Of a DNA stretch of 64,000 nucleotides, positions 1-19,978 are shown piece after piece; positions within the stretch are counted from its first letter, which is position 1, and each line of letters opens with the position of its first letter. Made by a program: the position numbers and the translations under genes. Under the pieces are notes generated by a model. It worked only from the letters and a program-made list of their open reading frames with translations. It ran no database searches and was not told the origin of the DNA. Origin of the DNA: Escherichia coli (GTDB lineage Bacteria; Pseudomonadota; Gammaproteobacteria; Enterobacterales; Enterobacteriaceae); the NCBI RefSeq assembly GCF_030013205.1, contig NZ_CP122648.1; one strand, 5' to 3'.

Positions 1-1
1 T

Positions 2-1288
2 AGCGCCACACTCAAGCGCGTTCTTAATCATCCCGAAGAGACACAAGCCCGACGCTTAATGACGCTGGAAGATATCGTCAGTGGTTATTCCAATGTGTTG
101 ATTTCCCTGGCAGATAGCCAGGGTAAAACGGTGTATCACTCCCCCGGTGCGCCGGATATCCGCGAGTTTACGCGTGACGCCATACCCGATAAAGACACGC
201 GGGGCGGCGAGGTGTATCTCCTTTCCGGCCCGACGATTATGATGCCGGGCCACGGTCACGGGCATATGGAACACAGCAACTGGCGGATGATTAACTTGCC
301 GGTTGGCCCGTTGGTGGACGGCAAACCGATTTATACGCTCTACATCGCGCTTTCGATCGATTTTCATCTTCATTACATAAATGATTTGATGAATAAACTT
401 ATTATGACCGCATCGATCATCAGCATCCTGATCGTCTTTATCGTGCTGTTGGCGGTACATAAAGGTCACGCACCGATCCGCAGCGTCAGCCGTCAAATCC
501 AGAACATTACCTCGAAAGATCTCGACGTTCGCCTTGACCCGCAGACCGTGCCGATTGAGCTGGAACAGCTGGTACTGTCGTTCAACCATATGATCGAGCG
601 TATTGAGGATGTCTTTACTCGCCAGTCCAATTTCTCAGCGGATATCGCTCACGAAATTCGTACACCAATTACGAATCTCATAACGCAAACCGAAATCGCC
701 CTCAGCCAGTCACGCAGCCAGAAGGAGCTGGAAGATGTGCTCTACTCTAATCTCGAAGAGCTGACGCGAATGGCGAAAATGGTCAGCGATATGCTGTTTC
801 TCGCCCAGGCCGATAACAACCAGCTAATCCCCGAAAAGAAAATGCTCAACCTGGCGGATGAAATCGGCAAAGTGTTCGATTTTTTCGAGGCGCTAGCGGA
901 AGATCGCGGCGTGGAACTGCGGTTTGTTGGTGACGAGTGTCAGGTTGCGGGCGATCCGCTGATGCTGCGTCGGGCGTTAAGCAACCTGCTTTCGAACGCC
1001 CTGCGTTATACGCCGCCCGGAGAGGCGATTGTAGTGCGCTGCCAGACGGTCGATCACCAGGTGCAAGTTTCCGTCGAAAACCCCGGTACGCCCATTGCGC
1101 CCGAGCACTTACCGCGATTGTTTGACCGTTTCTACCGCGTTGACCCCTCCCGCCAGCGAAAAGGCGAAGGTAGCGGTATTGGGCTGGCGATAGTGAAATC
1201 GATTGTTGTCGCGCATAAAGGCACGGTTGCAGTAACGTCAGATGCTCGGGGGACAAGGTTTGTGATTATGCTGCCGGAGAGAGAGTGA
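2..1288 (+). CDS. cusS: Copper/silver-responsive sensor histidine kinase, 3' portion (5' end lies outside the window)
   Basis: Frame open from position 2 with no upstream stop; translation shows a TM segment, a HAMP-like linker, an H-box (SADIAHEIRTP) and an ATPase domain (GSGIGLAIVKS); position next to nfrB matches the K-12 map. Confidence 0.85.
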   Translation, partial: SATLKRVLNHPEETQARRLMTLEDIVSGYSNVLISLADSQGKTVYHSPGAPDIREFTRDAIPDKDTRGGEVYLLSGPTIMMPGHGHGHMEHSNWRMINLPVGPLVDGKPIYTLYIALSIDFHLHYINDLMNKLIMTASIISILIVFIVLLAVHKGHAPIRSVSRQIQNITSKDLDVRLDPQTVPIELEQLVLSFNHMIERIEDVFTRQSNFSADIAHEIRTPITNLITQTEIALSQSRSQKELEDVLYSNLEELTRMAKMVSDMLFLAQADNNQLIPEKKMLNLADEIGKVFDFFEALAEDRGVELRFVGDECQVAGDPLMLRRALSNLLSNALRYTPPGEAIVVRCQTVDHQVQVSVENPGTPIAPEHLPRLFDRFYRVDPSRQRKGEGSGIGLAIVKSIVVAHKGTVAVTSDARGTRFVIMLPERE

Positions 1289-1644
1289 TTATTAAGTTCA
1301 AATTCAGGGCGTGGTGCATCACCTCCTGGTATTGTTGATCAACAAATTAGAGAAAAACTTATTAAACATATGAAATATCGAAGGCTTTTATTTTTCAAAG
1401 TTTCACGAGATGTTTGTATATGAAACTTAGTTAAATCTGTGTTTCTTCCAATTGTAGATCACAATGCCCTTTCTAAATTTTCATCGTTATAAACAAGCCA
1501 TCTATCATATAAAGCAATGAATAATTTAATCGCGATTAATCATCATTAATTGTTATATTATTCACTCAATCTATTTATCAAGTGAATTTGATAAATTCCT
1601 AATTTAAAATATCCACTATTGAGCCAGTATTTAACAACGTTAAG

Positions 1645-1672
1645 ATGTGCAATGTGCAATGTGCAATGTGCA
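1645..1672. repeat. Perfect tandem heptanucleotide repeat (ATGTGCA) x4
   Basis: Read directly: atgtgca repeated four times inside the AT-rich 750-bp leader upstream of vgrG. Confidence 0.9.
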
Positions 1673-2038
1673 GATCATGTTATCAGGGTGGAGCGGTAGC
1701 ATATATTTCTTATGCAATCATTCATTTTAATAATGTTAATTGGATTATTTATTGCTGTGAATAAAAATATATTATGAATATTGGTTTAACTTTGCGTTTT
1801 TGTTACTCGTTGTGATATGCGTACCTGTCCTGAATAACGCCAAGAAACAAGAGGTTGAGCTTGTGATTATTTTTTTGACTGAACAGACACCCGTTTCTGT
1901 AAAGTAATATTTAAACAAAATTCTCACATAACCATAGCATTTTCTGTTCCTTCCCTAATAACGTCTGAAGTCGTCCCGCTTATCACATTATCCGCAGTTG
2001 TACGGTACGGATCATTATTCATTTTACTGGAGGTTGCT

Positions 2039-3925
2039 ATGTCAACCGGATTACGTTTCACACTGGAAGTGGACGGCCTGCCGCCGGATGCTTTTGCGGT
2101 GGTTTCCTTTCATCTGAACCAGTCACTCTCTTCGCTCTTTTCCCTCGATCTCTCCCTGGTCAGCCAGCAGTTTCTCTCCCTTGAATTTGCGCAGGTGCTG
2201 GACAAAATGGCCTACCTGACGATATGGCAGGGCGATGAAGTACAGCGCCGGGTGAAAGGCGTGGTGACCTGGTTTGAACTCGGGGAGAACGACAAAAACC
2301 AGATGCTGTACAGCATGAAGGTGCACCCGCCGCTGTGGCGTGCCGGTCTGCGCCAGAACTTCCGTATCTTCCAGAACGAGGACATCAAAAGCATCCTCGG
2401 CACGATGTTGCAGGAAAACGGGGTGACCGAATGGAGTCCGCTGTTCAGCGAGCCGCATCCTTCCCGTGAGTTTTGTGTCCAGTACGGTGAGACTGATTAC
2501 GATTTCCTGTGCCGGATGGCGGCGGAGGAAGGCATCTTCTTTTATGAGGAGCATGCTTACAAAAGTACCGACCAGAGCCTGGTGCTGTGCGACACAGTCC
2601 GCCATCTGCCCGAATCTTTTGAAATCCCATGGAACCCGAACACCCGTACCGAGGTGAGCACCCTCTGCATCAGCCAGTTCCGCTACAGCGCACAAATCCG
2701 CCCTTCTTCCGTGGTGACCAAAGACTACACCTTTAAACGCCCCGGCTGGGCCGGACGTTTTGAACAGGAAGGCCAGCACCAGGACTACCAGCGCACGCAG
2801 TATGAAGTGTATGACTACCCCGGACGTTTCAAGGGTGCCCACGGGCAGAACTTTGCCCGCTGGCAGATGGACGGCTGGCGAAACAATGCAGAAACCGCGC
2901 GGGGAATGAGTCGTTCGCCGGAGATATGGCCGGGACGACGAATTGTGCTGACGGGGCATCCGCAGGCGAACCTGAACCGGGAATGGCAGGTGGTGGCAAG
3001 TGAACTGCACGGCGAACAGCCACAGGCGGTGCCAGGACGGCAGGGAGCGGGGACGGCGCTGGAGAACCATTTTGCGGTGATCCCGGCAGACAGAACATGG
3101 CGACCACAGCCGTTGCTGAAACCGCTGGTCGACGGCCCGCAGAGCGCTGTCGTGACAGGACCGGCAGGCGAGGAAATCTTCTGCGACGAACATGGTCGCG
3201 TGCGGGTGAAGTTCAACTGGGACCGTTATAACCCGGCAGACCAAGACAGTTCGTGCTGGATCCGTGTGGCACAGGCGTGGGCAGGCACCGGTTTTGGCCA
3301 CCTGGCGATACCACGTGTGGGTCAGGAAGTCATTGTGGACTTCCTCAACGGCGATCCGGACCAGCCGATCATTATGGGGCGCACCTACCACCAGGAAAAC
3401 CGCCCCCCCGGCAGCCTGCCGGGAACAAAGACGCAGATGACCATCCGCTCCAAAACGTACATGGGCAGCGGATTTAATGAGCTGAAGTTTGATGATGCGA
3501 CAGGGAGAGAACAGGTCTACATCCACGCGCAGAAGAACATGGATACCGAAGTGCTCAACGACCGTACCACCACCGTAAAACACGATCACCGCGAAACCGT
3601 AAAAAATGACCAGACGGTCACGATCCAGGAAGGTAACCGCCTTCTTACGGTGGAAAAAGGCCACAAGATCACCGGAGTACTGAAAGGGTCTTTATCTGAG
3701 GATGTCTTTCAGGACAGAGGCACGATTGCCGGTTCGGTGCATGTTGACGCTGTAAACAATGGTGGCGAAGGCGACGGTATACAGGCTTATACGGCGATTA
3801 AGGAAATTTTGCTGGCCGTGGAGGAAAGCAAAATTGCGCTGACGCCGGATGGCATTCAGCTACAGGTCGGGGAATCGACGGTACCGGATCACAGGTGTCA
3901 GTCACACCGACGGGATCCGGCTTAA
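2039..3925 (+). CDS. vgrG: VgrG-family type VI secretion spike protein, apparently C-terminally truncated
   Basis: 628-aa ORF with a GGAGG ribosome-binding site; N-terminus MSTGLRFTLEVDGLPPDAF typical of E. coli VgrG; gp27-like and gp5 OB-fold regions recognisable; ORF ends shortly after the start of the beta-helix repeat region and overlaps the Rhs ORF in another frame. Confidence 0.85.
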   Translation: MSTGLRFTLEVDGLPPDAFAVVSFHLNQSLSSLFSLDLSLVSQQFLSLEFAQVLDKMAYLTIWQGDEVQRRVKGVVTWFELGENDKNQMLYSMKVHPPLWRAGLRQNFRIFQNEDIKSILGTMLQENGVTEWSPLFSEPHPSREFCVQYGETDYDFLCRMAAEEGIFFYEEHAYKSTDQSLVLCDTVRHLPESFEIPWNPNTRTEVSTLCISQFRYSAQIRPSSVVTKDYTFKRPGWAGRFEQEGQHQDYQRTQYEVYDYPGRFKGAHGQNFARWQMDGWRNNAETARGMSRSPEIWPGRRIVLTGHPQANLNREWQVVASELHGEQPQAVPGRQGAGTALENHFAVIPADRTWRPQPLLKPLVDGPQSAVVTGPAGEEIFCDEHGRVRVKFNWDRYNPADQDSSCWIRVAQAWAGTGFGHLAIPRVGQEVIVDFLNGDPDQPIIMGRTYHQENRPPGSLPGTKTQMTIRSKTYMGSGFNELKFDDATGREQVYIHAQKNMDTEVLNDRTTTVKHDHRETVKNDQTVTIQEGNRLLTVEKGHKITGVLKGSLSEDVFQDRGTIAGSVHVDAVNNGGEGDGIQAYTAIKEILLAVEESKIALTPDGIQLQVGESTVPDHRCQSHRRDPA

Positions 3926-6900
3926 ACTGACGTACCACGCCAGCGGCTACCTGAAAGCCATTCACCGCACGGATAACGGCATACAGACGCTGGCGACCTA
4001 CGAACAGGATGCGCGGGGGCGGCTGACAGAAGCGGATGCGCGGCTGGACTACCACCTGTTTTATGAGTACGACGCTGCGGACCGGATCATCCGCTGGTCC
4101 GATAACGACCAGACGTGGAGCCGTTTCACCTACGATGAACAGGGCCGGTGCGTGAATGTCACCGGGGCGGAGGGCTATTACAACGCCACGCTGGACTATG
4201 GTGACGGCTGCACCACCGTGACGGACGGCAAGGGCATTCACCGTTATTACTATGATCCTGACGGCAATATTCTGCGGGAAGCAGCGCCGGACGGCAGCAC
4301 CACCATGTATGAATGGGATGAATTCCATCACCTGCTGGCCCGTCACTCCCCTGCCGGGCGGGTGGAGAAATTTGAATACAACGCCGCACACGGTCAGTTA
4401 AGCCGTTACACGGCGGCAGACGGCGCGGAGTGGCAGTACCGCTATGATGAGCGCGGCCTGCTCAGCAACATCACCGACCCTGCCGGGCAGACGTGGACAC
4501 AGCAGTGTGATGAACGCGGCCTGCCGGTAAGTCTGGTGTCGCCACAGGGCGAAGAGACCCGGCTGGCATACACCGCTCAGGGGCTGCTGTCGGGAATATT
4601 CCGCCAGGATGAACGGCGTCTGGGCATAGAGTACGACCACCACAACCGGCCGGAAACACTCACCGACGTGATGGGCCGTGAACACCACACCGAATACAGC
4701 GGTCACGACCTGCCGGTGAAGATGCGCGGCCCCGGCGGTCAGTCAGTGCGGTTACAGTGGCAGCAGCACCATAAACTGAGCGGCATTGAACGTGCTGGAA
4801 CCGGCGCGGAAGGATTCCGCTACGACCGCCACGGCAACCTGCTGGCCTGGACGGACGGCAACGGCGTTGTCTGGACAATGGAATACGGCCCGTTTGATTT
4901 GCCGGTGGCGCGAACGGACGGTGAAGGCCACCGCTGGCAGTACCGCTACGATAAAGACACGCTGCAACTGACAGAAGTCATTAACCCGCAGGGTGAGTCA
5001 TATCTTTATGTTCTGGATAACTGCGGCCGGGTGACGGAAGAGCATGACTGGGGCGGCGTGGTCTGGCGTTACCGCTATGACGCCGATGGCCTGTGTACCG
5101 CCAGGGTCAACGGCCTGGAGGAAACCATCCTCTACAGCCGGGACGCCGCAGGCCGCCTGGCAGAAGTCATCACGCCGGAAGGCAAAACGCAGTATGCGTA
5201 TGACAAATCCGGCAGGCTTACGGGTATCTTCAGCCCGGACGGCACATCACAGCGCACCGGCTATGACGAACGCGGGCGGGTGAATGTCACCACTCAGGGC
5301 CGACGGGCCATTGAATACCACCACCCCGATGAACACACCGTCATCCGCTGTATCCTGCCACCGGAAGATGAACGCGACAGACACCCCGGTGAATCCCTGC
5401 TGAAAACCACGTACCGCTACAACGCCGCCGGAGAACTGACGGAGGTTATCCTGCCGGGGGATGAGACGCTGACGTTCAGCCGTGATGAGGCAGGACGTGA
5501 AGTGCTCCGGCACAGTAACCGGGGTTTTGCCTGTGAACAGGGCTGGAATGCAGCCGGCCAGTCTGTCAGCCAGCGCGCCGGATTTTTCCCGGAAGAAGCC
5601 ACATGGGGCGGGCTGGTTCCGTCACTGGCGCGGGAATACCGTTATGACAGCGCGGGCAATGTGTCGGCTGTCACCAGCCGGGAAGATTACGGACGGGAAA
5701 CACGGCGGGAATACCGGCTGGACCGGAACGGCCAGGTCACGGCGGTGACAGCCTCAGGCACCGGGCTGGGCTATGGCGAAGGCGATGAGTCCTATGGCTA
5801 TGACAGCTGCGGCTACCTGAAGGCGCAGTCTGCGGGCTGGCACCGGATAAGTGAAGAGACTGACCAGTATGCCGGAGGCCACCGGCTGAAACAGGCCGGA
5901 AACACGCAGTATGACTATGACGCCGCAGGCCGGATGGTCAGCCGCACCAGACACCGTGACGGCTATCGCCCGGAAACAGAGCGGTTCCGGTGGGACAGCC
6001 GTGACCAGCTGACCGGGTATTGCAGCGCACAGGGTGAGCAGTGGGAATACCGCCACGACGCCAGCGGCAGACGAACAGAGAAACGCTGCGACCGGAAGAA
6101 AATCCGCTTCACGTATCTGTGGGACGGCGACAGTATTGCGGAAATCCGGGAATACCGCGATGATAAACTGTACAGCGTACGGCACCTGGTGTTTAACGGC
6201 TTTGAGCTGATAAGCCAGCAGTTCAGCCGGGTACGGCAGGCGCATCCGTCGGTGGCCCCGCAGTGGGTGACACGGACGAATCATGCGGTGAGCGACCTGA
6301 CGGGCCGTCCGCTGATGCTCTTTAACAGTGAAGGTAAAACCGTCTGGCGACCGGGACAGACCAGCCTGTGGGGGCTGGCACTCAGCCTGCCCGCAGACAC
6401 CGGCTACCCGGACCCGCGCGGGGAACTGGACCCGGAAGCCGACCCCGGCCTGCTGTATGCGGGACAGTGGCAGGATGCAGAATCCGGGCTGTGCTATAAC
6501 CGGTTCCGGTATTACGAGCCGGAAACCGGGATGTACCTGGTGAGTGATCCGCTGGGGTTGCTGGGGGGTGAGCAGACTTACCGGTATGTGCCAAATCCGT
6601 GTGGGTGGGTTGATCCGCTGGGATTGGCTGCAAGTTCTAAAATCAGCAGTTTGATGGACTATATTGGCGATGGTCGTCGTGTTAGTGGGCATACGGGTTT
6701 CCTGGATGGGGTTCGTTTATCACGTAGTCAAATAAACAATATTGCTAAAGAAATGGAGAAGCTAGGAATTAAAGTAATAAGGAAAGCAGATAAATATTTG
6801 CCACCAAATGCTAGGGCAGCTTTTGATTATGGCCTTCGCAATATTTATCTTAGGAAAAATGCCACCTTATATGAGGTGTATCATGAAGTGATTCATGCTA

Positions 6901-7079
6901 AGCAATTTGCGAAAATTGGACGAGAAGCATACGAAGCACTAGGACGTTTATCTAGGGAGGAACACGTTCTAAATGAAATATTAAAAAGTAAAAATTTATT
7001 CAATGAAGCGGAAATAGCTCATGCCATAAAATATGTTGAGGGATTGAGAGAAAAATTCATGATGGGACTAATAAATTGA
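3849..7079 (+). CDS. Rhs-family YD-repeat protein lacking the usual N-terminal region, with a C-terminal HExxH-containing tip
   Basis: 1076-aa ORF full of YD repeats (e.g. RYDxxGRL, YxYDxxG); core ends in the hallmark PNPCGWVDPLGL motif (~6590-6630), followed by a ~149-aa AT-rich tip containing HEVIH (6882-6896). The first ATG is inside the repeat region and no PAAR-like N-terminus is present, so this may be a fragment or pseudogene. Confidence 0.8.
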   Translation: MAFSYRSGNRRYRITGVSHTDGIRLKLTYHASGYLKAIHRTDNGIQTLATYEQDARGRLTEADARLDYHLFYEYDAADRIIRWSDNDQTWSRFTYDEQGRCVNVTGAEGYYNATLDYGDGCTTVTDGKGIHRYYYDPDGNILREAAPDGSTTMYEWDEFHHLLARHSPAGRVEKFEYNAAHGQLSRYTAADGAEWQYRYDERGLLSNITDPAGQTWTQQCDERGLPVSLVSPQGEETRLAYTAQGLLSGIFRQDERRLGIEYDHHNRPETLTDVMGREHHTEYSGHDLPVKMRGPGGQSVRLQWQQHHKLSGIERAGTGAEGFRYDRHGNLLAWTDGNGVVWTMEYGPFDLPVARTDGEGHRWQYRYDKDTLQLTEVINPQGESYLYVLDNCGRVTEEHDWGGVVWRYRYDADGLCTARVNGLEETILYSRDAAGRLAEVITPEGKTQYAYDKSGRLTGIFSPDGTSQRTGYDERGRVNVTTQGRRAIEYHHPDEHTVIRCILPPEDERDRHPGESLLKTTYRYNAAGELTEVILPGDETLTFSRDEAGREVLRHSNRGFACEQGWNAAGQSVSQRAGFFPEEATWGGLVPSLAREYRYDSAGNVSAVTSREDYGRETRREYRLDRNGQVTAVTASGTGLGYGEGDESYGYDSCGYLKAQSAGWHRISEETDQYAGGHRLKQAGNTQYDYDAAGRMVSRTRHRDGYRPETERFRWDSRDQLTGYCSAQGEQWEYRHDASGRRTEKRCDRKKIRFTYLWDGDSIAEIREYRDDKLYSVRHLVFNGFELISQQFSRVRQAHPSVAPQWVTRTNHAVSDLTGRPLMLFNSEGKTVWRPGQTSLWGLALSLPADTGYPDPRGELDPEADPGLLYAGQWQDAESGLCYNRFRYYEPETGMYLVSDPLGLLGGEQTYRYVPNPCGWVDPLGLAASSKISSLMDYIGDGRRVSGHTGFLDGVRLSRSQINNIAKEMEKLGIKVIRKADKYLPPNARAAFDYGLRNIYLRKNATLYEVYHEVIHAKQFAKIGREAYEALGRLSREEHVLNEILKSKNLFNEAEIAHAIKYVEGLREKFMMGLIN

Positions 7080-7327
7080 TAAAACATAACAAAATAACTA
7101 TCGAAATGGCTCTTGACTTGGCTCGGCGTGAGTTAGAGTTAAGGGAAATTCCTTATATTAAAAATAGTCTACATGCCAATTACAGCTATAAATCTATTAG
7201 TATTGGTTCTAAGCAAGGTTGGTTAATTTCAGCGAAATTAAAAGTCCCTGAAACTTTTGAGCCTGATATGATATTTATTGAGATATCTGACCCAGAAGGT
7301 TTTATTAATATTCCTGATGTATTATAA
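7076..7327 (+). CDS. Small ORF immediately downstream of the Rhs tip; candidate cognate immunity protein
   Basis: 83-aa ORF with a TTG start overlapping the Rhs stop (alternative ATG at 7106); AT-rich like the toxin tip; position is the classic rhs-immunity arrangement. Function inferred from context only. Confidence 0.45.
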   Translation: MIKHNKITIEMALDLARRELELREIPYIKNSLHANYSYKSISIGSKQGWLISAKLKVPETFEPDMIFIEISDPEGFINIPDVL

Positions 7328-7441
7328 ACTACGTTAGAGGTTTTGTTATAAGGTAATCGGTTTCTTTACAGACCGCTGGCGTACATCGCACAGAGGCTGC
7401 TAACAGGGATATTCCTGCCTGGATGAACGCAAGGCAAGATC

Positions 7442-7753
7442 ATGGAAATAGTGATATACATCACTATTTCCATCCTGATTTTAGCTATCGCATTAATAAA
7501 ACAGCGGATGTTAGCCAATATCGAAACCAGTAACCCGTATCACGCCCAGTACATCCTGCGCCGCCGCGATGATTACCTGGTGCTGTTCGACCGTGATGCC
7601 CTGAGCTGCCGCTTCTTTTATGACGCCTTTCCGGGAATGCGTCTGCGCCACCAGGTGACCGGCGATACCGACGATGACCGCCTGGCACACAGCCCCGCAG
7701 ACCGGATGTATACAGGGAAAGATCATCAGAAGTACACTTTTTGTACTAAATAA
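7442..7753 (+). CDS. Hypothetical 103-aa ORF with hydrophobic N-terminus; possible orphan fragment
   Basis: ORF track; N-terminal 30 codons AT-rich and hydrophobic, remainder GC-rich; no recognisable motif. Confidence 0.25.
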   Translation: MEIVIYITISILILAIALIKQRMLANIETSNPYHAQYILRRRDDYLVLFDRDALSCRFFYDAFPGMRLRHQVTGDTDDDRLAHSPADRMYTGKDHQKYTFCTK

Positions 7754-7789
7754 TTCACATTTTATGTTTAAAAATTGAGATATTCCTCA

Positions 7790-9010
7790 TTACCTGAAGC
7801 TGTTTTTTATTGCTTATACATGATCAAATACTCCTTACATAATTAAGGAGAACAAAATGGAACTTAAAAAATTGATGGAACATATTTCTATTATTCCCGA
7901 TTACAGACAAGCCTGGAAAGTGGAACATAAATTATCGGATATTCTATTGTTGACTATTTGTGCCGTTATTTCTGGTGCGGAAGATTGGGAAGATATAGAG
8001 GATTTTGGGGAAACACATCTCGATTTTTTGAAGCAATATGGTGATTTTGAAAATGGTATTCCTGTTCACGATACCATTGCCAGAGTTGTATCCTGTATCA
8101 GTCCTGCAAAATTTCACGAGTGCTTTATTAACTGGATGCGTGACTGCCATTCTTCAGATGATAAAGACGTCATTGCAATTGATGGAAAAACGCTCCGGCA
8201 CTCTTATGACAAGAGTCGCCGCAGGGGAGCGATTCATGTCATTAGTGCGTTCTCAACAATGCACAGTCTGGTCATCGGACAGATCAGGACGGATGAGAAA
8301 TCCAATGAGATTACAGCTATCCCAGAACTTCTTAACATGCTGGATATTAAAGGAAAAATCATCACAACTGATGCGATGGGTTGCCAGAAAGATATTGCAG
8401 AGAAGATACAAAAACAGGGAGGTGATTATTTATTCGCGGTAAAAGGAAACCAGGGGCGGCTAAATAAAGCCTTCGAGGAAAAATTTCCGCTGAAAGAATT
8501 AAATAATCCAGAGCATGACAGTTACGCAATGAGTGAAAAGAGTCACGGCAGAGAAGAAATCCGTCTTCACATTGTTTGCGATGTCCCTGATGAACTTATT
8601 GATTTCACGTTTGAATGGAAAGGTCTGAAGAAATTATGCGTGGCAGTCTCCTTTCGGTCAATAATAGCAGAACAAAAGAAAGAGCCAGAAATGACGGTCA
8701 GATATTATATTAGTTCTGCTGATTTAACCGCAGAGAAGTTCGCCACAGCAATCCGAAACCACTGGCACGTGGAGAATAAGCTGCACTGGCGTCTGGACGT
8801 GGTAATGAATGAAGACGACTGCAAAATAAGAAGAGGAAATGCAGCAGAATTATTTTCAGGGATACGGCACATCGCTATTAATATTTTGACGAATGATAAG
8901 GTATTCAAGGCAGGGTTAAGACGTAAGATGCGAAAAGCAGCCATGGACAGAAACTATCTGGCGTCAGTCCTTGCGGGGAGCGGGCTTTCGTAATCTTGCC
9001 CTGCCTGCTC
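7790..9010. mobile_element. H-repeat (ISAs1-family) element; boundaries approximate
   Basis: Contains the 378-aa H-repeat transposase gene; this type of element is known to accompany Rhs elements. Ends were not mapped. Confidence 0.6.
7857..8993 (+). CDS. ISAs1-family (H-repeat-associated) transposase
   Basis: 378-aa ORF with AAGGAG ribosome-binding site; sequence [32 protein letters not shown] matches the YhhI/YdcC H-rpt protein family as I recall it. Confidence 0.85.
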
Positions 9011-9263
9011 ACCTCCTCCAGGCACTTCCACTACATGATGACCTGCTCGGTGCCACCGCTCCTTTTCACTATGACGTTAACCTCCCTGTCCCAGGACACC
9101 ATGCTTTTGTCTACATTCTACGCAAACGGCAACTTTTATAACCAGTGTAAAAATAACGTGCCGCAATAGTCATACCTATTAATGGTAAAAAGCTGTCACA
9201 ATTCATAAAAAACCTTAATATACGCCACCCTAAACATAACCAGCGTTAATGTAAGGTTTTTGT

Positions 9264-11501
9264 GTGGACTGGCTTCTTGATGTTTTTGCTACCTGGCTCT
9301 ACGGCTTAAAAGTAATCGCGATAACGTTAGCGGTCATCATGTTCATCAGCGGGCTGGACGATTTTTTTATTGATGTCGTCTACTGGGTACGCCGCATTAA
9401 ACGCAAGTTGAGTGTTTATCGCCGCTACCCGCGAATGAGTTACCGCGAACTGTATAAACCAGATGAAAAACCGTTAGCGATTATGGTTCCGGCGTGGAAT
9501 GAAACGGGCGTCATCGGCAATATGGCCGAGCTGGCGGCGACCACGCTCGACTATGAAAACTATCATATCTTTGTTGGCACCTACCCCAACGACCCCGATA
9601 CTCAGCGTGATGTTGACGAAGTGTGCGCTCGCTTCCCGAATGTGCATAAGGTAGTCTGCGCGCGACCTGGCCCCACCAGCAAAGCCGACTGCCTGAACAA
9701 CGTGCTGGACGCCATCACCCAGTTTGAGCGTAGCGCCAATTTCGCTTTTGCTGGTTTTATTCTGCATGACGCCGAAGATGTGATTTCACCGATGGAATTG
9801 CGTCTGTTCAACTATCTGGTCGAGCGTAAAGATCTGATTCAGATCCCGGTGTATCCGTTCGAACGCGAATGGACGCACTTCACCAGCATGACTTACATTG
9901 ATGAGTTTTCAGAACTGCATGGCAAAGATGTTCCGGTGCGTGAAGCCCTCGCCGGACAAGTGCCCAGCGCAGGCGTCGGTACCTGTTTCAGCCGCCGCGC
10001 CGTGACCGCACTGTTAGCTGACGGTGACGGTATTGCTTTCGACGTGCAGAGTCTTACTGAAGATTACGACATTGGTTTCCGCCTGAAAGAAAAAGGTATG
10101 ACGGAAATTTTTGTCCGTTTTCCGGTGGTGGACGAAGCCAAAGAACGCGAGCAGCGTAAATTTTTACAGCACGCGCGGACGTCAAACATGATCTGCGTGC
10201 GCGAATATTTCCCCGATACCTTTTCGACTGCGGTTCGACAAAAATCTCGCTGGATCATCGGCATTGTTTTCCAGGGCTTTAAAACCCACAAATGGACCTC
10301 CAGCCTGACGCTGAACTACTTTCTCTGGCGCGACCGCAAAGGGGCAATCAGTAACTTTGTCAGCTTCCTCGCGATGCTGGTGATGATCCAGCTTTTGCTG
10401 TTACTGGCGTATGAAAGTTTGTGGCCCGATGCCTGGCATTTCCTTTCTATTTTCAGCGGCAGCGCATGGTTAATGACCCTGCTGTGGCTAAACTTTGGTT
10501 TAATGGTTAACCGCATCGTGCAGCGGGTGATTTTTGTCACTGGCTACTACGGTCTGACGCAGGGGCTGCTATCTGTCCTGCGTCTTTTCTGGGGCAACCT
10601 GATTAACTTCATGGCCAACTGGCGCGCGTTAAAACAGGTACTTCAACACGGCGATCCACGTCGCGTCGCGTGGGATAAAACAACGCATGACTTCCCCAGC
10701 GTGACTGGCGATACCCGCTCGTTGCGTCCGTTAGGTCAAATCCTGCTGGAAAATCAGGTCATCACTGAAGAACAACTCGATACAGCACTGCGTAATCGCG
10801 TCGAAGGTCTACGCCTGGGCGGTTCAATGCTGATGCAGGGGCTGATTAGCGCCGAACAGCTGGCACAGGCGCTGGCAGAGCAAAACAGCGTGGCGTGGGA
10901 GTCGATCGACGCCTGGCAGATCCCTTCATCACTGATTGCCGAAATGCCGGCCTCCGTGGCGCTGCATTATGCAGTGCTGCCGCTGCGTCTGGAAAATGAT
11001 GAGTTAATTGTCGGCAGTGAAGATGGTATTGACCCGGTTTCGCTGGCAGCCCTGACGCGTAAAGTCGGACGCAAAGTGCGTTACGTCATTGTTCTGCGGG
11101 GACAAATTGTCACGGGGTTACGCCACTGGTATGCGCGCCGACGCGGTCACGATCCGCGGGCAATGTTGTACAATGCGGTTCAGCATCAGTGGCTCACGGA
11201 ACAGCAGGCCGGTGAAATCTGGCGGCAATATGTGCCGCATCAGTTCCTGTTCGCCGAAATACTGACCACGCTCGGTCATATTAATCGTTCAGCAATTAAC
11301 GTGTTGTTATTGCGCCATGAACGTAGTTCTCTGCCGCTCGGCAAGTTTTTGGTCACCGAAGGCGTTATCAGCCAGGAAACGTTGGATCGCGTCCTGACAA
11401 TTCAACGCGAATTACAAGTTTCGATGCAATCACTATTACTCAAAGCAGGTTTAAACACAGAACAGGTTGCGCAACTGGAGTCCGAAAATGAAGGAGAATA
11501 A
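9264..11501 (+). CDS. nfrB: Bacteriophage N4 adsorption protein B (inner-membrane glycosyltransferase family 2)
   Basis: 745-aa ORF with GTG start, N-terminal TM helices; length and neighbourhood (nfrA immediately downstream) match K-12 NfrB. Confidence 0.85.
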   Translation: MDWLLDVFATWLYGLKVIAITLAVIMFISGLDDFFIDVVYWVRRIKRKLSVYRRYPRMSYRELYKPDEKPLAIMVPAWNETGVIGNMAELAATTLDYENYHIFVGTYPNDPDTQRDVDEVCARFPNVHKVVCARPGPTSKADCLNNVLDAITQFERSANFAFAGFILHDAEDVISPMELRLFNYLVERKDLIQIPVYPFEREWTHFTSMTYIDEFSELHGKDVPVREALAGQVPSAGVGTCFSRRAVTALLADGDGIAFDVQSLTEDYDIGFRLKEKGMTEIFVRFPVVDEAKEREQRKFLQHARTSNMICVREYFPDTFSTAVRQKSRWIIGIVFQGFKTHKWTSSLTLNYFLWRDRKGAISNFVSFLAMLVMIQLLLLLAYESLWPDAWHFLSIFSGSAWLMTLLWLNFGLMVNRIVQRVIFVTGYYGLTQGLLSVLRLFWGNLINFMANWRALKQVLQHGDPRRVAWDKTTHDFPSVTGDTRSLRPLGQILLENQVITEEQLDTALRNRVEGLRLGGSMLMQGLISAEQLAQALAEQNSVAWESIDAWQIPSSLIAEMPASVALHYAVLPLRLENDELIVGSEDGIDPVSLAALTRKVGRKVRYVIVLRGQIVTGLRHWYARRRGHDPRAMLYNAVQHQWLTEQQAGEIWRQYVPHQFLFAEILTTLGHINRSAINVLLLRHERSSLPLGKFLVTEGVISQETLDRVLTIQRELQVSMQSLLLKAGLNTEQVAQLESENEGE

Positions 11502-14460
11502 CCTTAATCGCGTCATCGGATGGTCTGGTTTACTGCTGACGTCTTTATTGAGTACCAGCGCACTCGCAGACAATATCGGCACCAGCGCAGAAGAGCTGGG
11601 GCTGAGCGATTATCGCCATTTTGTTATTTATCCCCGTCTCGATAAGGCGCTGAAGGCACAAAAAAATAACGACGAAGCAACCGCCATCCGCGAATTTGAA
11701 TATATACACCAACAGGTGCCGGATAATATTCCGCTAACTTTATACCTTGCGGAAGCCTATCGCCATTTTGGTCATGATGACTGGGCGCGGCTGTTGCTTG
11801 AGGATCAACTGAAACGTCACCCAGGAGATGCCCGACTTGAGCGCAGTCTGGCGGCTATTCCAGTTGAAGTGAAAAGCGTTACGACTGTTGAAGAACTGCT
11901 TGCCCAGCAAAAAGCATGCGATGCTGCGCCGACCCTGCGTTGTCGCAGTGAAGTTGGGCAGAATGCCCTGCGGCTGGCACAATTACCTGTCGCCAGAGCG
12001 CAACTGAACGATGCGACGTTTGCTGCATCGCCGAAAGGAAAAACGCTGCGAACCGATCTGCTGCAACGGGCAATCTACCTGAAGCAATGGTCCCAGGCAG
12101 ATACGCTATACAATGAAGCACGCCAGCAGAACACATTAAGCGCGGCAGAACGCCGCCAGTGGTTTGATGTGCTTCTTGCCGGGCAGCTGGACGATCGGAT
12201 CCTGGCGCTGCAATCACAGGGGATCTTCACCGATCCGCAGTCATATATTACTTACGCGACCGCGCTGGCTTATCGTGACAAAAAAGCACGCCTCCAGCGT
12301 TATCTCATTGAAAATACGCCGCTATTTACCACGGACGCACAAGAGAAAAGTTGGCTCTATCTGTTATCTAAATACAGCGGCAACCCCGTTCAGGCGTTGG
12401 CGAATTATACGGTACAGTTTGCCGACAACCGCCAGTATGTTGTTGGCGCGACGCTACCGGTGCTGTTAAAAGAAGGTCAGTACGACGCAGCGCAAAAACT
12501 GCTCGCCACCCTCCCCGCCAATGAAATGCTTGAGGAGCGTTATACCGTTAGCGTAGCGACCCATAACAAGGCTGAAGCTCTGCGTCTGGCACGATTGCTG
12601 TATCAGCAAGAACCGGCAAATCTTACCCGCCTGGATCAACTGACCTGGCAACTGATGCAGAACGAGCAGTCACGCGAAGCTGCCGATTTATTGCTGCAAC
12701 GCTATCCTTTCCAGGGCGATGCGCGTGTCAGCCAGACTTTAATGGCGCGACTGGCGTCTCTGCTGGAAAGTCATCCTTACCTGGCAACTCCGGCGAAGGT
12801 GGCGATTTTATCGAAACCCTTACCGCTGGCGGAGCAACGTCAGTGGCAAAGTCAGTTGCCGGGTATTGCAGATAATTGCCCGGCAATAGTTCGCTTGCTG
12901 GGCGATATGTCGCCTTCCTACGATGCCGCCGCCTGGAACCGTCTGGCAAAGTGTTATCGGGACACGCTACCCGGTGTGGCGTTGTATGCATGGCTTCAGG
13001 CCGAACAACGACAACCGAACGCCTGGCAACATCGTGCGGTAGCCTATCAGGCGTATCAGGTTGAGGACTACGCCACCGCACTGGCGGCCTGGCAGAAAAT
13101 CAGTCTTCACGACATGAGCAATGAGGATCTGCTTGCTGCTGCCAATACCGCCCAGGCGGCAGGAAATGGTGCGGCTCGCGATCGCTGGCTTCAGCAGGCA
13201 GAACAACGTGGGCTGGGAAACAATGCCCTCTACTGGTGGCTGCATGCGCAACGTTACATTCCTGGTCAGCCGGAACTCGCACTGAACGATCTCACGCGCT
13301 CAATCAATATTGCGCCTTCTGCCAACGCTTACGTTGCGCGGGCGACAATTTATCGCCAACGTCATAATGTCCCAGCGGCGGTGAGTGATTTGCGCGCCGC
13401 GCTGGAACTGGAACCGAATAATAGCAACACCCAGGCAGCGCTCGGTTACGCCTTGTGGGATAGCGGTGATATCGCACAGTCGCGGGAAATGCTCGAACAG
13501 GCGCATAAAGGGCTACCAGACGATCCGGCACTTATCCGACAACTGGCCTACGTGAACCAGCGTCTGGATGACATGCCTGCGACGCAGCACTACGCCCGGC
13601 TGGTGATTGATGACATTGATAATCAGGCGCTGATAACCCCACTGACCCCAGAGCAAAATCAGCAACGCTTCAATTTCCGCCGTCTGCATGAGGAGGTCGG
13701 TCGCCGCTGGACGTTCAGTTTCGATTCTTCCATCGGCTTGCGTTCCGGCGCGATGAGTACCGCTAACAATAATGTCGGCGGCGCAGCGCCAGGGAAAAGC
13801 TATCGTAGCTACGGGCAACTGGAAGCCGAGTACCGCATCGGACGCAATATGCTGCTGGAAGGCGACCTGCTCTCGGTTTACAGCCGTGTATTTGCCGATA
13901 CCGGAGAAAACGGGGTGATGATGCCGGTGAAAAATCCGATGTCCGGCACCGGTCTGCGCTGGAAGCCGCTGCGCGATCAGATCTTTTTCCTCGCCGTCGA
14001 ACAGCAGTTGCCGCTGAACGGGCAAAATGGCGCATCCGATACCATGCTGCGCGCCAGCGCCTCATTCTTTAATGGCGGCAAATACAGCGATGAATGGCAC
14101 CCGAACGGTTCAGGCTGGTTTGCCCAAAACCTGTACCTCGATGCGGCGCAATATGTCCGCCAGGATATTCAGGCGTGGACGGCAGATTATCGCGTCAGCT
14201 GGCATCAGAAGGTGGCGAACGGACAGACTATTGAGCCTTACGCTCACGTTCAGGACAACGGTTATCGTGATAAAGGCACTCAGGGCGCGCAGCTTGGCGG
14301 TGTCGGGGTCCGCTGGAATATCTGGACCGGCGAGACGCACTACGACGCCTGGCCGCACAAAGTCAGTCTCGGCGTCGAGTATCAACATACCTTTAAGGCA
14401 ATTAATCAACGTAACGGAGAGCGCAACAACGCGTTTCTCACCATTGGAGTGCACTGGTAA
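11488..14460 (+). CDS. nfrA: Bacteriophage N4 adsorption protein A (outer-membrane TPR protein)
   Basis: 990-aa product from MKENNLNRVIGWSGLLL (signal peptide); overlaps the nfrB stop; C-terminal beta-rich region. Confidence 0.85.
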   Translation: MKENNLNRVIGWSGLLLTSLLSTSALADNIGTSAEELGLSDYRHFVIYPRLDKALKAQKNNDEATAIREFEYIHQQVPDNIPLTLYLAEAYRHFGHDDWARLLLEDQLKRHPGDARLERSLAAIPVEVKSVTTVEELLAQQKACDAAPTLRCRSEVGQNALRLAQLPVARAQLNDATFAASPKGKTLRTDLLQRAIYLKQWSQADTLYNEARQQNTLSAAERRQWFDVLLAGQLDDRILALQSQGIFTDPQSYITYATALAYRDKKARLQRYLIENTPLFTTDAQEKSWLYLLSKYSGNPVQALANYTVQFADNRQYVVGATLPVLLKEGQYDAAQKLLATLPANEMLEERYTVSVATHNKAEALRLARLLYQQEPANLTRLDQLTWQLMQNEQSREAADLLLQRYPFQGDARVSQTLMARLASLLESHPYLATPAKVAILSKPLPLAEQRQWQSQLPGIADNCPAIVRLLGDMSPSYDAAAWNRLAKCYRDTLPGVALYAWLQAEQRQPNAWQHRAVAYQAYQVEDYATALAAWQKISLHDMSNEDLLAAANTAQAAGNGAARDRWLQQAEQRGLGNNALYWWLHAQRYIPGQPELALNDLTRSINIAPSANAYVARATIYRQRHNVPAAVSDLRAALELEPNNSNTQAALGYALWDSGDIAQSREMLEQAHKGLPDDPALIRQLAYVNQRLDDMPATQHYARLVIDDIDNQALITPLTPEQNQQRFNFRRLHEEVGRRWTFSFDSSIGLRSGAMSTANNNVGGAAPGKSYRSYGQLEAEYRIGRNMLLEGDLLSVYSRVFADTGENGVMMPVKNPMSGTGLRWKPLRDQIFFLAVEQQLPLNGQNGASDTMLRASASFFNGGKYSDEWHPNGSGWFAQNLYLDAAQYVRQDIQAWTADYRVSWHQKVANGQTIEPYAHVQDNGYRDKGTQGAQLGGVGVRWNIWTGETHYDAWPHKVSLGVEYQHTFKAINQRNGERNNAFLTIGVHW

Positions 14461-17948: not shown

Positions 17949-19433
17949 ATGCGAAAAATAATTACTCATTTCAAAGTTGTTTTAACGTTACTTCTACCAG
18001 TAACCGTATCTGCCCAGCAGATACAGTGGCAATCCTGTATGGCCAGTCAATTCAACCACTGGTTTGGTGAGGAAAAACCGTCTCCTGACTTACTATGTGG
18101 TTATTTGTCTGTTCCATTAAAATATACAGACACAGGCGGAGATGCTTCTTATGAAAAAAAATCACAAGTCAAACTAGCGTTGACAAAATTGCCGGCAAAA
18201 AGCAAGCATAAAGGAAGTATCCTGATAATAAGTGGTGGTCCCGGGTTACCAGGCATAAATCCTTATATTAACTTTGACTGGCCAGTCACAAATCTTCGTG
18301 AGTCATGGGATATTATTGGATTTGATCCTCGAGGCGTCGGACAGTCCACTCCGACAATAAACTGCCGGCAATCAGATACAGAGACTCAGGAAAACATAAC
18401 CGAAAAGCAACAAGTATTAAATAAAATTAATGCCTGTATCCATAATACCGGAGCCGAAGTCATTCGCCATATCGGCTCTAACGAGGCTGTGTACGATATT
18501 GATCGTATTAGGCAAGCCTTGGGGGATAAACAACTGACAGCCGTGGCGTATTCGTATGGAACTCAAATTGCAGCCTTATATGCAGAACGTTTTCCCTACA
18601 ACGTAAGATCTATCGTTCTTGATGGAGTCGTCGATATCGATGACCTGGAGGACAACTTCACATGGCAACTCAAACAGGCACAGAGTTATCAGGAAACGTT
18701 TGATCGCTTTGCATCCTGGTGTGCGCGTACAAAAAGTTGCCCGCTTTCTTCAGACAGAGATAAGGCAATAACTCAGTTCCATGAGCTATTATCAAAATTA
18801 CATCACAAACCTTTATTAGACAGTAAGGGAGAAAATATATCTTCAGATGAACTCATATCATTAACAACAGACCTTCTGCTATGGCGTTCATCATGGCCAA
18901 CCCTTGCAACTGCCATACGCCAGTTCTCTCAGGGGATTGTCAGTAATGAAATTGAAACTGCGCTCAGTGCTCCGATAGCCTCAGAAGAGTCAAGCGATGC
19001 TTCGGGGGTAATCCTCTGTGTAGATCAGGGGGATGAGCAATTAACACCAGAAGAGCGAAAATCCCGAAAAGACGCTCTTGCGAATGCCTTCCCGGCTATT
19101 AACTTTGACAATGGACGTTCCGATTCACCTGATTTTTGTGAATTATGGCCAATACATAGCGACCTGAACAAAACTCGCCTGAAAAATATTGTTCTGCCCT
19201 CTGGTTTACTGTTTGTAGCACACAAATACGACCCAACAACGCCCTGGATTAATGCCCGTAAGATGGCAGAGAAATTTTCCAGCCCGTTACTAACAATAAA
19301 TGGTGATGGGCATACATTAGCTCTCACCGGAGTTAATTTATGTGTAGATAAAGCAGTTGTACATCACCTGATCACTCCACAAAAAATAGAAAATATATAC
19401 TGCCCAGGAAATTCTGAAGCAGAAATACAATAA
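17949..19433 (+). CDS. Secreted alpha/beta-hydrolase, S33/TAP-like peptidase family (putative)
   Basis: ATG at 17949 gives MRKIITHFKVVLTLLLPVTVSAQQ (signal peptide); nucleophile elbow VAYSYGTQ; size (~494 aa) and layout resemble proline iminopeptidase / tripeptidyl aminopeptidase-type hydrolases. Confidence 0.6.
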   Translation: MRKIITHFKVVLTLLLPVTVSAQQIQWQSCMASQFNHWFGEEKPSPDLLCGYLSVPLKYTDTGGDASYEKKSQVKLALTKLPAKSKHKGSILIISGGPGLPGINPYINFDWPVTNLRESWDIIGFDPRGVGQSTPTINCRQSDTETQENITEKQQVLNKINACIHNTGAEVIRHIGSNEAVYDIDRIRQALGDKQLTAVAYSYGTQIAALYAERFPYNVRSIVLDGVVDIDDLEDNFTWQLKQAQSYQETFDRFASWCARTKSCPLSSDRDKAITQFHELLSKLHHKPLLDSKGENISSDELISLTTDLLLWRSSWPTLATAIRQFSQGIVSNEIETALSAPIASEESSDASGVILCVDQGDEQLTPEERKSRKDALANAFPAINFDNGRSDSPDFCELWPIHSDLNKTRLKNIVLPSGLLFVAHKYDPTTPWINARKMAEKFSSPLLTINGDGHTLALTGVNLCVDKAVVHHLITPQKIENIYCPGNSEAEIQ

Positions 19434-19616: not shown

Positions 19617-19922
19617 TCAATATACATTTTGCACCTTCGAGATAGTAATGAATGTTACTGTAACATGAGTTACAAACAGCTTCATACCCAGAGCTACTGA
19701 TGTATCAACACGATTCAACAATACCCGATATTTATTCCATGCCTCCAGCAACGATCTTTCTTCCTCCGTTGCGATTTCCAGATCTACAGCATCCTGCAGT
19801 GGCGCAATATACTCACTGAATTCCTGGATGTAGAACTGTGTGGTGACGGTCTTCCAGCCATTCGGCTCCTGCTGTATCGAAGCATACCAGGCTATTTCAA
19901 TATCGCTATGCTGCGGCAGCAT
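19617..19922 (-). CDS. Hypothetical phage protein sharing a ~37-aa segment with the gene remnant at 20700-20867
   Basis: 101-aa ORF; the central segment [34 protein letters not shown] is encoded by one copy of the ~120-bp direct repeat. Confidence 0.4.
19699..19818. repeat. Direct repeat copy A (~120 bp, ~88% identical to copy B)
   Basis: Hand alignment to 20748-20867. Confidence 0.8.
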
Positions 19923-19978
19923 TTAACCCCTTGTAATTCATCGCCATAATTGATTTAATTCACAAATAAAACTATAAC

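Follow-up and report, generated by a model that had tools for sequence, protein, structure and literature searches.

The DNA between cusS and nfrB in this stretch of the Escherichia coli chromosome (64,000 nucleotides, hereafter the window) carries a vgrG gene, an rhs core with an AT-rich tip and an H-repeat transposase, which raises the question of whether the block is a strain-specific insertion, as a first-pass annotation had proposed, and whether it could still serve as a type VI secretion system (T6SS) effector locus. We used the RefSeq annotation of NZ_CP122685.1 (E. coli ETEC4067), a 100%-identical record, which likewise places the end of cusS at 1288 and the start of nfrB at 9264. Annotation and profile searches recovered all features that the first-pass annotation had listed between the two genes at the positions given there. 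As set out below, the locus is very probably a common accessory T6SS effector island of E. coli at cusS/nfrB that is found here in a decayed state (Table 1).

Table 1 Features of the cusS/nfrB region in the window.
Feature	Coordinates	Strand	Evidence and remarks
cusS	1-1288	+	NF007345, 831 bits; RefSeq; 5' end cut off by the window edge
DNA missing from the empty cusS-nfrB site	1267-9121 (7,855 bp)		blastn against BH212 (L003), base-by-base junction alignments
AT-rich leader	1289-2038 (750 bp)	+	GC 0.317; upstream of vgrG
vgrG'	2039-3925 (628 aa)	+	TIGR03361, 627 bits
Deletion junction	3881-3883		GACGGTA/CCGGATC, 3-bp microhomology GTA; 2,229 bp gone compared with the intact island
rhs' core remnant	3884-6626	+	Pfam and NCBIfam YD/RHS repeats; GC 0.616
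Rhs C-terminal toxin tip, Tox-MPTase4 zincin-like metallopeptidase	6627-7079	+	PF15640, E = 5.8e-32; GC 0.366
Putative immunity gene	7076-7327 (maximal ORF, TTG start at 7076)	+	Overlaps the rhs stop
Terminator-like hairpin	7442-7473	+	Perfect 14-bp stem; downstream of the putative immunity gene
Displaced rhs N-terminal fragment	7531-7710 (180 bp)	+	90-93% identity to the main rhs of genomes L002, L005 and L008
ISEc1 (ISAs1 family, "H-repeat")	7713-9003 (1,291 bp)	+	Ends by comparison with the O157 and aspV-locus copies and by inverted-repeat scan
ISEc1 transposase	7857-8993	+	NF033564, 417 bits
Right-hand island remnant	9004-9121 (118 bp)		Follows ISEc1 and precedes the ancestral nfrB upstream region; not in the empty site
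Ancestral nfrB upstream region (9122-9263) and nfrB (9264-11501)	9122-11501	+	99.8% identity to the empty-site strain; NF008411, 1332 bits

A widespread island at the cusS/nfrB site

The first-pass annotation had correctly stated that cusS and nfrB are neighbours in K-12, where the block is absent and the two genes lie 149 bp apart (MG1655), and that the site is outside the K-12 Rhs loci. However, the left junction of the island was found in 2,441 of 5,426 complete E. coli genomes, O157:H7 among them, which refutes a strain-specific status; the K-12-type empty site occurs in 2,326. The island is thus neither strain-specific nor universal, because the block is absent from K-12 and present in slightly less than half of E. 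coli, so that the ancestral case considered in the first-pass annotation, with the block in K-12 and most E. coli, does not apply either. Divergent versions with a leader identity of 84.5% and other toxin tips exist, and some other E. coli genomes carry a different toxin/immunity array at the site. Jackson et al. 2009 (BMC Genomics 10:584; PMC2935791) listed the site among the conserved Rhs loci as locus 4, the only one with an rhs of clade IV, and in O157 Sakai it is S-loop 44 (PMC7618764); the block is an already known, widespread T6SS effector island of E. coli. E. albertii has no rhs listed at this position (PMC2935791), which might hint, indirectly, at an old gain within E. coli.

Alignment with an empty site stops at 1266/1267 and sets the limits of the island at 1267-9121 rather than 1289-9263. 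According to the junction alignments, the island has taken the place of 23 bp of the empty allele, including the 3' end of cusS; cusS in the window is thus the island-type allele, of which the final 22 bp or so (1267-1288) are unlike the K-12-type allele and which encodes a CusS of 482 aa compared to 480 aa for the empty-site allele. Target-site duplications, which the first-pass annotation had suggested to look for at the ends of the block, were not found, since no direct k-mer of at least 6 is common to both ends of the island, and neither an integrase nor a tRNA accompanies it.

An internal deletion truncates vgrG and rhs

In relatives with an intact island, the AT-rich leader is followed by vgrG, eagR (encoding a DUF1795/DcrB-type chaperone) and the gene for a prePAAR/PAAR-Rhs effector whose C-terminal toxin can be swapped; next come an immunity gene, rhs fragments that have been displaced, and ISEc1. 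Mapping by blastn against the intact-island reference CFSAN061763 (L005) revealed a single internal deletion that truncates both vgrG and rhs and that the first-pass annotation had missed: window positions 1-3883 match 1060-4928 of the reference and 3881-9600 match 7158-12877, with 99.2-99.3% identity on both sides. The deletion, the length of which is a multiple of 3, took the last 18 vgrG codons, the whole eagR gene and the first 554 or so residues of Rhs, i.e. a segment that codes for an EagT6-like chaperone and for the prePAAR_I, PAAR and DUF6531 parts of Rhs. This loss is one clean, microhomology-mediated event. It is the only lineage-specific part of the island; the contiguous junction is present in 13 of the 5,426 genomes, every one from pigs. 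Four more pig genomes share the type VI deletions described below; the one inspected, K_EC180, harbors a nested, larger deletion with a further 333 bp of vgrG gone.

The truncated vgrG' is native through 3883 and ends with 13 codons of out-of-frame rhs sequence. Compared to the intact 633-aa VgrG, its product lacks the native C-terminal 18 residues of the beta-helix, the end of which (residues 561-633) is represented by PDB 3WIT. This vgrG is the single vgrG-like place in ETEC4067 according to blastn, which would miss DNA identities below about 65%, while genomes outside the pig-associated set have 2-4 such places among those listed. The leader is shared from 1572 onwards with vgrG copies at other loci, since the paralogous vgrG matches begin there, and contains GTGCAAT three times in tandem (1647-1673); promoter-like sites were not commoner in the leader than in shuffled sequences and an Rfam search of it gave no matches.

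The rhs ORF (3849-7079) encodes YD repeats, the Rhs-associated core and the AT-rich tip in a frame that stays open over 1,076 codons and has an ATG at 3849, and is classified by RefSeq as a pseudogene without N-terminus. Its core corresponds to residues 555-1474, approximately, of the 1,620-aa intact Rhs (99% identity to residues 553-1620 of the L005 protein) and terminates at a DPxGL ... PxxxxDPxGL motif (6546-6626), but is devoid of prePAAR, PAAR, DUF6531 and a start of its own.

The secretion machine of the same genome is also damaged. Besides vgrG, no T6SS structural gene is annotated in the window, and vgrG is indeed an orphan, as the first-pass annotation had stated, the nearest type VI cluster being 374 kb away at aspV. 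The aspV-linked cluster, the only one so far identified in the clone, has large deletions (5.26 kb and 7.04 kb compared with an intact cluster): hcp, vgrG, vasI, tssA, tssM and part of tssH are missing, and tagH contains an internal stop. Both deletion junctions are present in 17 pig genomes.

Toxin tip, putative immunity gene and downstream region

The HExxH motif of the toxin tip is intact (HEVIH at 6882-6896). The tip is 98% identical to a 444-aa orphan of O157 and appears to correspond to Rhs-CT1 and to EHEC RhsG. Together with the putative immunity gene it occurs in 1,152 genomes, nearly all with at least 99% identity. RefSeq places this gene at 7118-7327 (69 aa, WP_001299578.1), and the same protein is encoded 3' of the MPTase4 tip in O157, HB-Coli0 and CFSAN061763. 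A family search with the 69-aa protein gave no matches; its putative immunity role is deduced from papers on near-identical loci and from its position, by which the gene equals EHEC rhsGI and occupies the place of cti1 beside Rhs-CT1. On the plus strand upstream of the tip, a consensus promoter scan found no site. Some expression of the truncated Rhs seems possible, given the open frame, its ATG and the intact toxin motif.

Further downstream, the orphan ORF of the first-pass annotation (7442-7753) is present but spurious, a chimera of unrelated sequence, the displaced rhs fragment and, from 7713 onwards, the left end of ISEc1. The fragment is in frame, matches the intact Rhs over roughly residues 474-535 and is a partial pseudogene in RefSeq; a displaced rhs core fragment of this kind is described in the legend of Fig. 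5 in PMC2935791. ISEc1 has the terminal inverted repeats CAGGGAAAGATC and CAGGGCAAGATT, and a target-site duplication is absent at its ends.

Probable decay of the effector island and alternative explanations

In class I prePAAR Rhs effectors, the N-terminal transmembrane helices are shielded by EagR, the VgrG trimer, blunt at its C-terminal end, is capped by the PAAR domain, and the toxin is enclosed in the Rhs cage until autoproteolysis at the DPxGL motif frees it. Contraction of the type VI sheath drives the spike into a neighbour cell, and a small protein encoded downstream shields sister cells. The toxin encoded in the window could presumably no longer be loaded or fired, and the locus would therefore be a relic in this pig-associated ETEC / O139:H1 clone. 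Both vgrGO1 and eagR were required for delivery according to the description of Ma et al. 2017 in PMC6730261. The intact putative immunity gene might still protect against neighbours firing Rhs-CT1.

A recent insertion of a composite Rhs island at an unoccupied cusS-nfrB junction could draw on the empty site in K-12 and 2,326 other complete genomes, on the foreign base composition (AT-rich leader and tip versus GC-rich core) and on the E. albertii record, but the spread and divergence of the island, its entry in the 2009 catalogue, the lack of duplication, integrase and tRNA, and a cusS 3' end that belongs to the allele make it very improbable. That the vgrG::rhs junction is an assembly artefact from collapsed rhs repeats can practically be dismissed: Rhs cores are repeated, and five places in the genome match a 9.6-kb query, yet the identical junction recurs in 13 complete genomes assembled independently in several studies, and the deleted segment is unique, without a repeat boundary and with a microhomology of 3 bp only. 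We also consider it highly unlikely that vgrG' and rhs', which overlap by 77 nt (3849-3925), are fused by +1 ribosomal frameshifting there into a functional "evolved VgrG" that bypasses PAAR and EagR. The overlapping ORFs, the open rhs' frame, the deletion length divisible by 3 and a solved natural VgrG-Rhs fusion (PDB 8QJA) would suit such a fusion; however, the frames are +1 apart with no slippery or shift-prone site recognisable by eye in the overlap, the only identified type VI cluster of the clone lacks tssA and tssM, rhs' is a RefSeq pseudogene, and vgrG has lost further sequence in one or more clone mates, which speaks against its being under selection.

A more serious, though still doubtful, alternative is that the remnant is no mere relic, but is kept as a secretion-independent type II toxin-antitoxin (TA)-like or regulatory module with a promoter inside rhs'. 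Positions 5582-7397 equal the O157 rhsG-rhsGI segment (96.9% DNA identity, 98% protein identity, identical immunity protein), for which transcription was reported to start internally, ahead of the autoprotease site, in EHEC Sakai, together with toxicity of RhsGint upon expression (PMC7618764), and orphan Rhs modules of Salmonella are described as TA systems (PMC7043789). By analogy, the MPTase4 tip and the immunity gene may be transcribed from an internal promoter and may act as such a module. The near-identity of the pair across about 1,150 genomes fits this idea, but may only mirror recent common ancestry, and the negative promoter scan speaks against it. A TA-like role complements the decay of the effector island and does not replace it as an explanation.

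Comparison with known systems

The K-12 RhsA-E loci share with the window the GC-rich core, AT-rich extension, small downstream ORF and ISAs1-family H-repeat, but lie at other chromosomal sites and belong to clade I instead of clade IV (Jackson 2009, PMC2935791). The Salmonella Typhimurium orphan Rhs TA system (PMC7043789), in which the delivery part is absent, the immunity gene is kept and internal expression is proposed, is a model for what the remnant might still do, whereas its Rhs clade and toxin differ.

Rhs locus 4, with nfrB/cusS as the worked example of C-terminal tip displacement (PMC2935791), has the same flanks and, like the window, vgrG contiguous with rhs and its displaced tips as well as a core fragment downstream; missing from the window copy are the 3' end of vgrG, all of eagR and one third of rhs at its 5' end. 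Its MPTase4 tip sits on the truncated main rhs, whereas it is a displaced orphan in O157 and HB-Coli0. Compared by description (Ma et al. 2017 via PMC6730261; bioRxiv 10.1101/2024.03.05.583533), the layout also matches vgrGO1-eagR-Rhs-CT1(MPTase4)/CTI1 of STEC004, with Tox-MPTase4 on a PAAR-Rhs, vgrG and eagR upstream in intact relatives and a small immunity gene 3'. Delivery in STEC004 reportedly needs vgrGO1, eagR and a working T6SS, whereas the window has lost eagR and PAAR and encodes a shortened VgrG, and the T6SS of its genome is broken.

S-loop 44 of O157 occupies the same site and comprises vgrG1 (z0707), eagR (z0706), rhsF (z0705/ECs0605), rhsFI (ECs0604), rhsG (ECs0603) and rhsGI (ECs5380) (PMC7216683, PMC7618764; EDL933 names z0707/z0706/z0705 from PMC7216683), with an ISAs1 element downstream in both. 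In O157 the upstream vgrG-eagR-rhsF is intact and carries another tip, whereas the window has no rhsF-type tip and a truncated main rhs. The tip and the immunity protein of the window are 98% and 100% identical, respectively, to the O157 proteins that were equated by position with rhsG/rhsGI, and it is for this locus in Sakai that internal promoters, a toxic RhsGint and TA-like behaviour have been reported (PMC7618764).

Content, limits and occupancy of the cusS/nfrB site

The first 9.6 kb of the window match E. coli ETEC4067 (NZ_CP122685.1; Belgium, pig faeces) at 100% identity, and all features that the first-pass annotation had listed between cusS and nfrB could be confirmed. Its statements that the block is missing from K-12 (cusS and nfrB are only 149 bp apart in MG1655) and that the site is not among the K-12 Rhs loci were likewise borne out. 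The vgrG is remote from any type VI secretion system (T6SS) cluster; the aspV-linked cluster of ETEC4067 is located 374 kb from the island.

Features at the cusS/nfrB site, in window coordinates.
Feature	Position	Characteristics
cusS	end at 1288	5' part outside window
AT-rich leader		750 bp, GC 0.317
vgrG	2039-3925	TIGR03361, 627 bits
rhs frame	open 3849-7079	YD repeats, Rhs-associated core, two DPxGL motifs, AT-rich Tox-MPTase4 tip
Small ORF	7076/7118-7327
ORF	7442-7753
ISEc1 transposase	7857-8993	ISAs1-family
nfrB	start at 9264

An alignment with BH212, a strain with an empty site, matches up to window position 1266 and picks up again at 9122, i.e. 7,855 bp (1267-9121) stand in place of 23 bp of the empty allele. 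The replaced stretch takes in the last cusS codons (window 1267-1288), and CusS of the island allele has 482 aa and the C-terminus ...VIMLPERE, versus 480 aa and ...VITLPA for the empty allele. No target-site duplication was detected at 1267 or 9121, nor were a direct repeat, an integrase or a tRNA found at the island ends. These findings speak against an integrase-borne genomic island, as does the exchange of the 23 bp present in the empty allele. Between the two compared strains, the cusS body is 95.8% identical as opposed to 99.8% on the nfrB side, and the differences in cusS are scattered, with no gradient of divergence toward the island.

The first-pass annotation had interpreted the block as a strain-specific insertion, but a recent event of this kind is refuted by the frequencies of the site states: the left junction of the island is present in 2,441 of the 5,426 complete E. 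coli genomes and an intact empty site in 2,326, with the remaining genomes counted in neither class. At least 80% of the 9.6-kb query is covered in 1,145 of the 5,426. Moreover, the locus has been in the literature since Jackson et al. 2009, where "locus 4, nfrB/cusS" represents one of 11 conserved Rhs positions, the sole clade IV rhs locus of E. coli and the example chosen for C-terminal tip displacement, including the downstream core fragment (PMC2935791). For E. albertii, the same study lists rhs genes at two of these positions, 1 and 5, as well as a relic at position 6, but not position 4, which hints at an old gain of the island within E. coli (PMC2935791). A scan of GTDB species genomes with a wobble-tolerant pattern for the CusS C-terminus (DARGTRFVI) yielded 10 chance matches in unrelated phyla and none in Escherichia, E. 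coli included, though the pattern fits cusS of the window and of K-12; the collection may hold no Escherichia.

The ST131-type genome NZ_CP145099.1 (L011 12223-23110) carries a different polymorphic-toxin array at this site, without vgrG or rhs, which comprises an HNH/EndoVII toxin-2 fragment, two WD40/BNR-repeat proteins, a PAAR-like protein, a SUKH-3 immunity-type protein and two ISAs1 copies. The 3' end of cusS is of the island type in this genome. For cassettes of toxin and immunity genes, the cusS/nfrB site acts as a hot spot.

A deletion removes the delivery parts of the island

The closest intact island, that of CFSAN061763 (L005), encodes a VgrG of 633 aa, an EagR of 153 aa (DcrB-related, EagT6-like, E=1e-5) and an Rhs of 1,620 aa with an MPTase4 tip, followed by the immunity gene, an rhs fragment and ISEc1. 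The window is collinear with this locus at 99.2-99.3% identity except for a single gap (window 1-3883 corresponds to L005 1060-4928 and window 3881-9600 to L005 7158-12877), which is a 2,229-bp deletion in the window with a 3-bp microhomology at GACGGTA/CCGGATC. VgrG thereby loses its last 18 residues, which belong to the C-terminal beta-helix of PDB 3WIT (covering residues 561-633, 73 residues), and 13 out-of-frame residues are found in their place; the gp27/gp5 part is intact according to a profile search, but the beta-helix tip that the cognate VgrG would need at its C-terminus is damaged. The eagR gene, which is kept in intact relatives, is wholly deleted, and no adjacent DUF1795/DcrB-like chaperone is present. 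Rhs residues 1 to ~554 are deleted together with the prePAAR_I motif, the PAAR domain and DUF6531, and RefSeq accordingly labels rhs as a pseudogene without N-terminus. In line with this, Pfam detected neither PAAR nor prePAAR on the shortened Rhs, whereas both are located at residues 54-310 of the intact relative, and the N-terminal prePAAR motif, transmembrane helices and PAAR of a class I prePAAR effector are absent from the window. The in-frame ATG at 3849 sits in former vgrG sequence, and no Shine-Dalgarno was found for it at normal spacing.

The YD/RHS cage still ends in the PxxxxDPxGL autoprotease motif, but its N-terminal third is gone. The remaining repeats match TIGR01643 and PF05593, with TIGR03696 at residues 865-926 and DPxGL at residues 900 and 922 of the shortened protein. 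Retained as well is the variable C-terminal toxin with its putative cognate immunity gene: Tox-MPTase4 (Pfam, E=5.8e-32) with HEVIH intact, and directly downstream of the tip an ORF of 69-83 aa. The 69-aa protein WP_001299578.1 is identical after the same tip in O157, HB-Coli0 and CFSAN061763, and the tip-plus-immunity segment occurs in 1,152 genomes, nearly all at an identity of at least 99%. The GC content drops from 0.616 in the core to 0.366 in the tip and to 0.313 in the downstream ORF. An NCBIfam search with the immunity protein, EagR and the product of ORF 7442-7753 gave no matches.

ISEc1 spans 7713-9003 (1,291 bp) and is bounded by imperfect inverted repeats of 12 bp, and its transposase matches NF033564 over the full 314-position model (417 bits); no target-site duplication was found flanking the element. 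Within ORF 7442-7753, the middle part (7531-7710) is a displaced copy, 180 bp in length, of rhs codons ~474-535, and the reading frame then extends into ISEc1; to judge from this make-up, the ORF is no gene.

Just past the immunity gene, a perfect palindrome with a 14-bp stem is located at 7442-7473. Ahead of it, GCAAGGCAAGATCATGGAA (7429-7447) is similar to an ISEc1 terminal repeat, and 7429-7473 may be the solo end of an older H-repeat insertion. Upstream of vgrG, the leader contains GTGCAAT three times in tandem plus a partial fourth copy (window 1647-1673), and the O157 leader lacks 158 bp (window 1315-1472). Scans for consensus promoters and for terminators, run on the leader and the rhs 3' region, gave counts not above those of shuffles and were uninformative; an Rfam scan of 1-9600 returned no matches.

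The type VI machine of the same genome

The aspV-linked type VI cluster of ETEC4067 (NZ_CP122685.1 4007215-4026114; L007 17215-36114), which is located outside the window, was compared with the intact cluster of CFSAN061763. A 5.26-kb deletion has removed hcp, vgrG and the 5' end of rhs, a 7.04-kb deletion has removed the 3' end of tssH, vasI, tssA, tssM and the 5' end of vasL, and tagH contains an internal stop. From its gene content we conclude that this cluster, the sole one identified in the genome, is inactivated. In blastn searches sensitive to ~65-70% identity, ETEC4067 and its clone mates showed one vgrG-like place only, versus two to four in other genomes outside the pig-associated set among the matches listed. 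IS200C is inserted near the cluster, where an ISAs1 transposase with an internal stop is also present.

Distribution of the deletions in a pig-associated clone

The contiguous deletion junction of the island occurs in 13 of the 5,426 genomes, all from pig or wild boar, namely Belgian ETEC strains and two O139:H1 strains. Both deletion junctions of the aspV cluster are present in 17 genomes, all from pigs, which consist of these 13 and K_EC180, EC556, EC571 and EC581. K_EC180 (pig, Korea) shares the rhs-side breakpoint in the island but is missing another 333 bp of vgrG (window 3549-3881), a pattern best read as a nested secondary deletion. An ordering of T6SS loss and island decay based on the junction counts (17 versus 13 genomes) was discarded; no order can be inferred because K_EC180, the inspected one of the four extra genomes, has the nested deletion sharing the rhs-side breakpoint. 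In one pig-associated ETEC/O139:H1 clone, the secretion machine and the effector delivery parts are both deleted, whereas the toxin tip and its immunity gene are preserved. This agrees with the notion that the weapon is outlived by immunity genes and possibly by toxin tips with internal expression.

Fate of the toxin and its immunity gene

For a prePAAR/PAAR-Rhs effector to be delivered, PAAR must dock on the tip of VgrG, EagR must be present, and a contractile T6SS that includes TssA and TssM is required. The toxin in the window would no longer be deliverable, and the island would therefore be a relic. For the surviving 69-aa protein, the simplest role would be immunity against neighbours firing Rhs-CT1, an MPTase4-tipped PAAR-Rhs toxin.

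A fusion of VgrG and Rhs via frameshift is conceivable, since the ORFs of the two remnants share 77 nt and such fusions occur naturally (8QJA). It is unlikely, however, given that the frames differ by +1 without an evident shift site, that the secretion machine is broken and that more of vgrG is deleted in one clone mate. That the vgrG::rhs junction merely arose during assembly is excluded by its presence in 13 independent complete assemblies. A more far-reaching alternative to a relic, which we regard as possible but rather improbable, is that the Rhs cage remnant, the MPTase4 tip and the immunity gene are kept under selection as a secretion-independent TA-like or regulatory pair with a promoter inside rhs; an analogous proposal exists for EHEC RhsGint-RhsGI (PMC7618764). 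If true, the clone would provide a natural "delivery-minus" experiment on the action of an Rhs tip inside its own cell.

Other elements in the window

A second Rhs element begins at the far end of the window (62183-64000, minus strand), where RhsD classically sits beside ybbP (Jackson locus 3). Included in the window are the 3'-terminal 1.35 kb of a gene of 4,203 bp annotated as "RHS element core protein", which extends from 62655 past the window end, and downstream of it a 163-aa ORF (62183-62674), likely an immunity gene. The tRNA and integrase remnant closest to the island lie ~17 kb downstream of it, within a prophage scar (19617-26748) at tRNA-Arg (26672-26748), the DLP12 site in K-12. 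The scar contains tail-fibre-assembly fragments, ymfL/ymfT/ymfK-like genes, yfdP/yfdQ and a truncated integrase, with a SAM methyltransferase gene amid the fragments; an alpha/beta hydrolase gene (~17949-19433), which adjoins ompT, is located just upstream. Coordinates of the second Rhs element and the scar were converted from the RefSeq record.

Relation to known Rhs systems

The island itself is already known; the window carries a clone-specific, deletion-inactivated copy. In O157 EDL933 and Sakai, the locus consists of vgrG1 (z0707), eagR (z0706), rhsF, rhsFI, rhsG and rhsGI (PMC7216683; PMC7618764) and is also named S-loop 44 (PMC7618764). According to the summary of Ma et al. 2017 in PMC6730261, Rhs-CT1 kills neighbours via the T6SS, and its delivery requires the upstream vgrGO1 and eagR. 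In annotations, the block should appear under the known accessory T6SS effector island of the cusS/nfrB site (Rhs locus 4/S-loop 44/vgrGO1 type), with vgrG and rhs of the clone marked as deletion remnants; labels such as new strain-specific island or functional orphan vgrG would be wrong.

All parts of an Rhs element as defined by Hill and co-workers are present in the window, i.e. a GC-rich core, an abrupt AT-rich extension, a small ORF and an H-repeat (ISAs1-family). For the near-identical rhsG-rhsGI of EHEC Sakai, transcription is reported to start within rhs itself, on the upstream side of the autoprotease site, and the authors interpreted this as a type II TA-like module (PMC7618764). The segment homologous to this EHEC toxin/immunity pair is wholly kept in the window (5582-7397), with 96.9% DNA and 98% protein identity.
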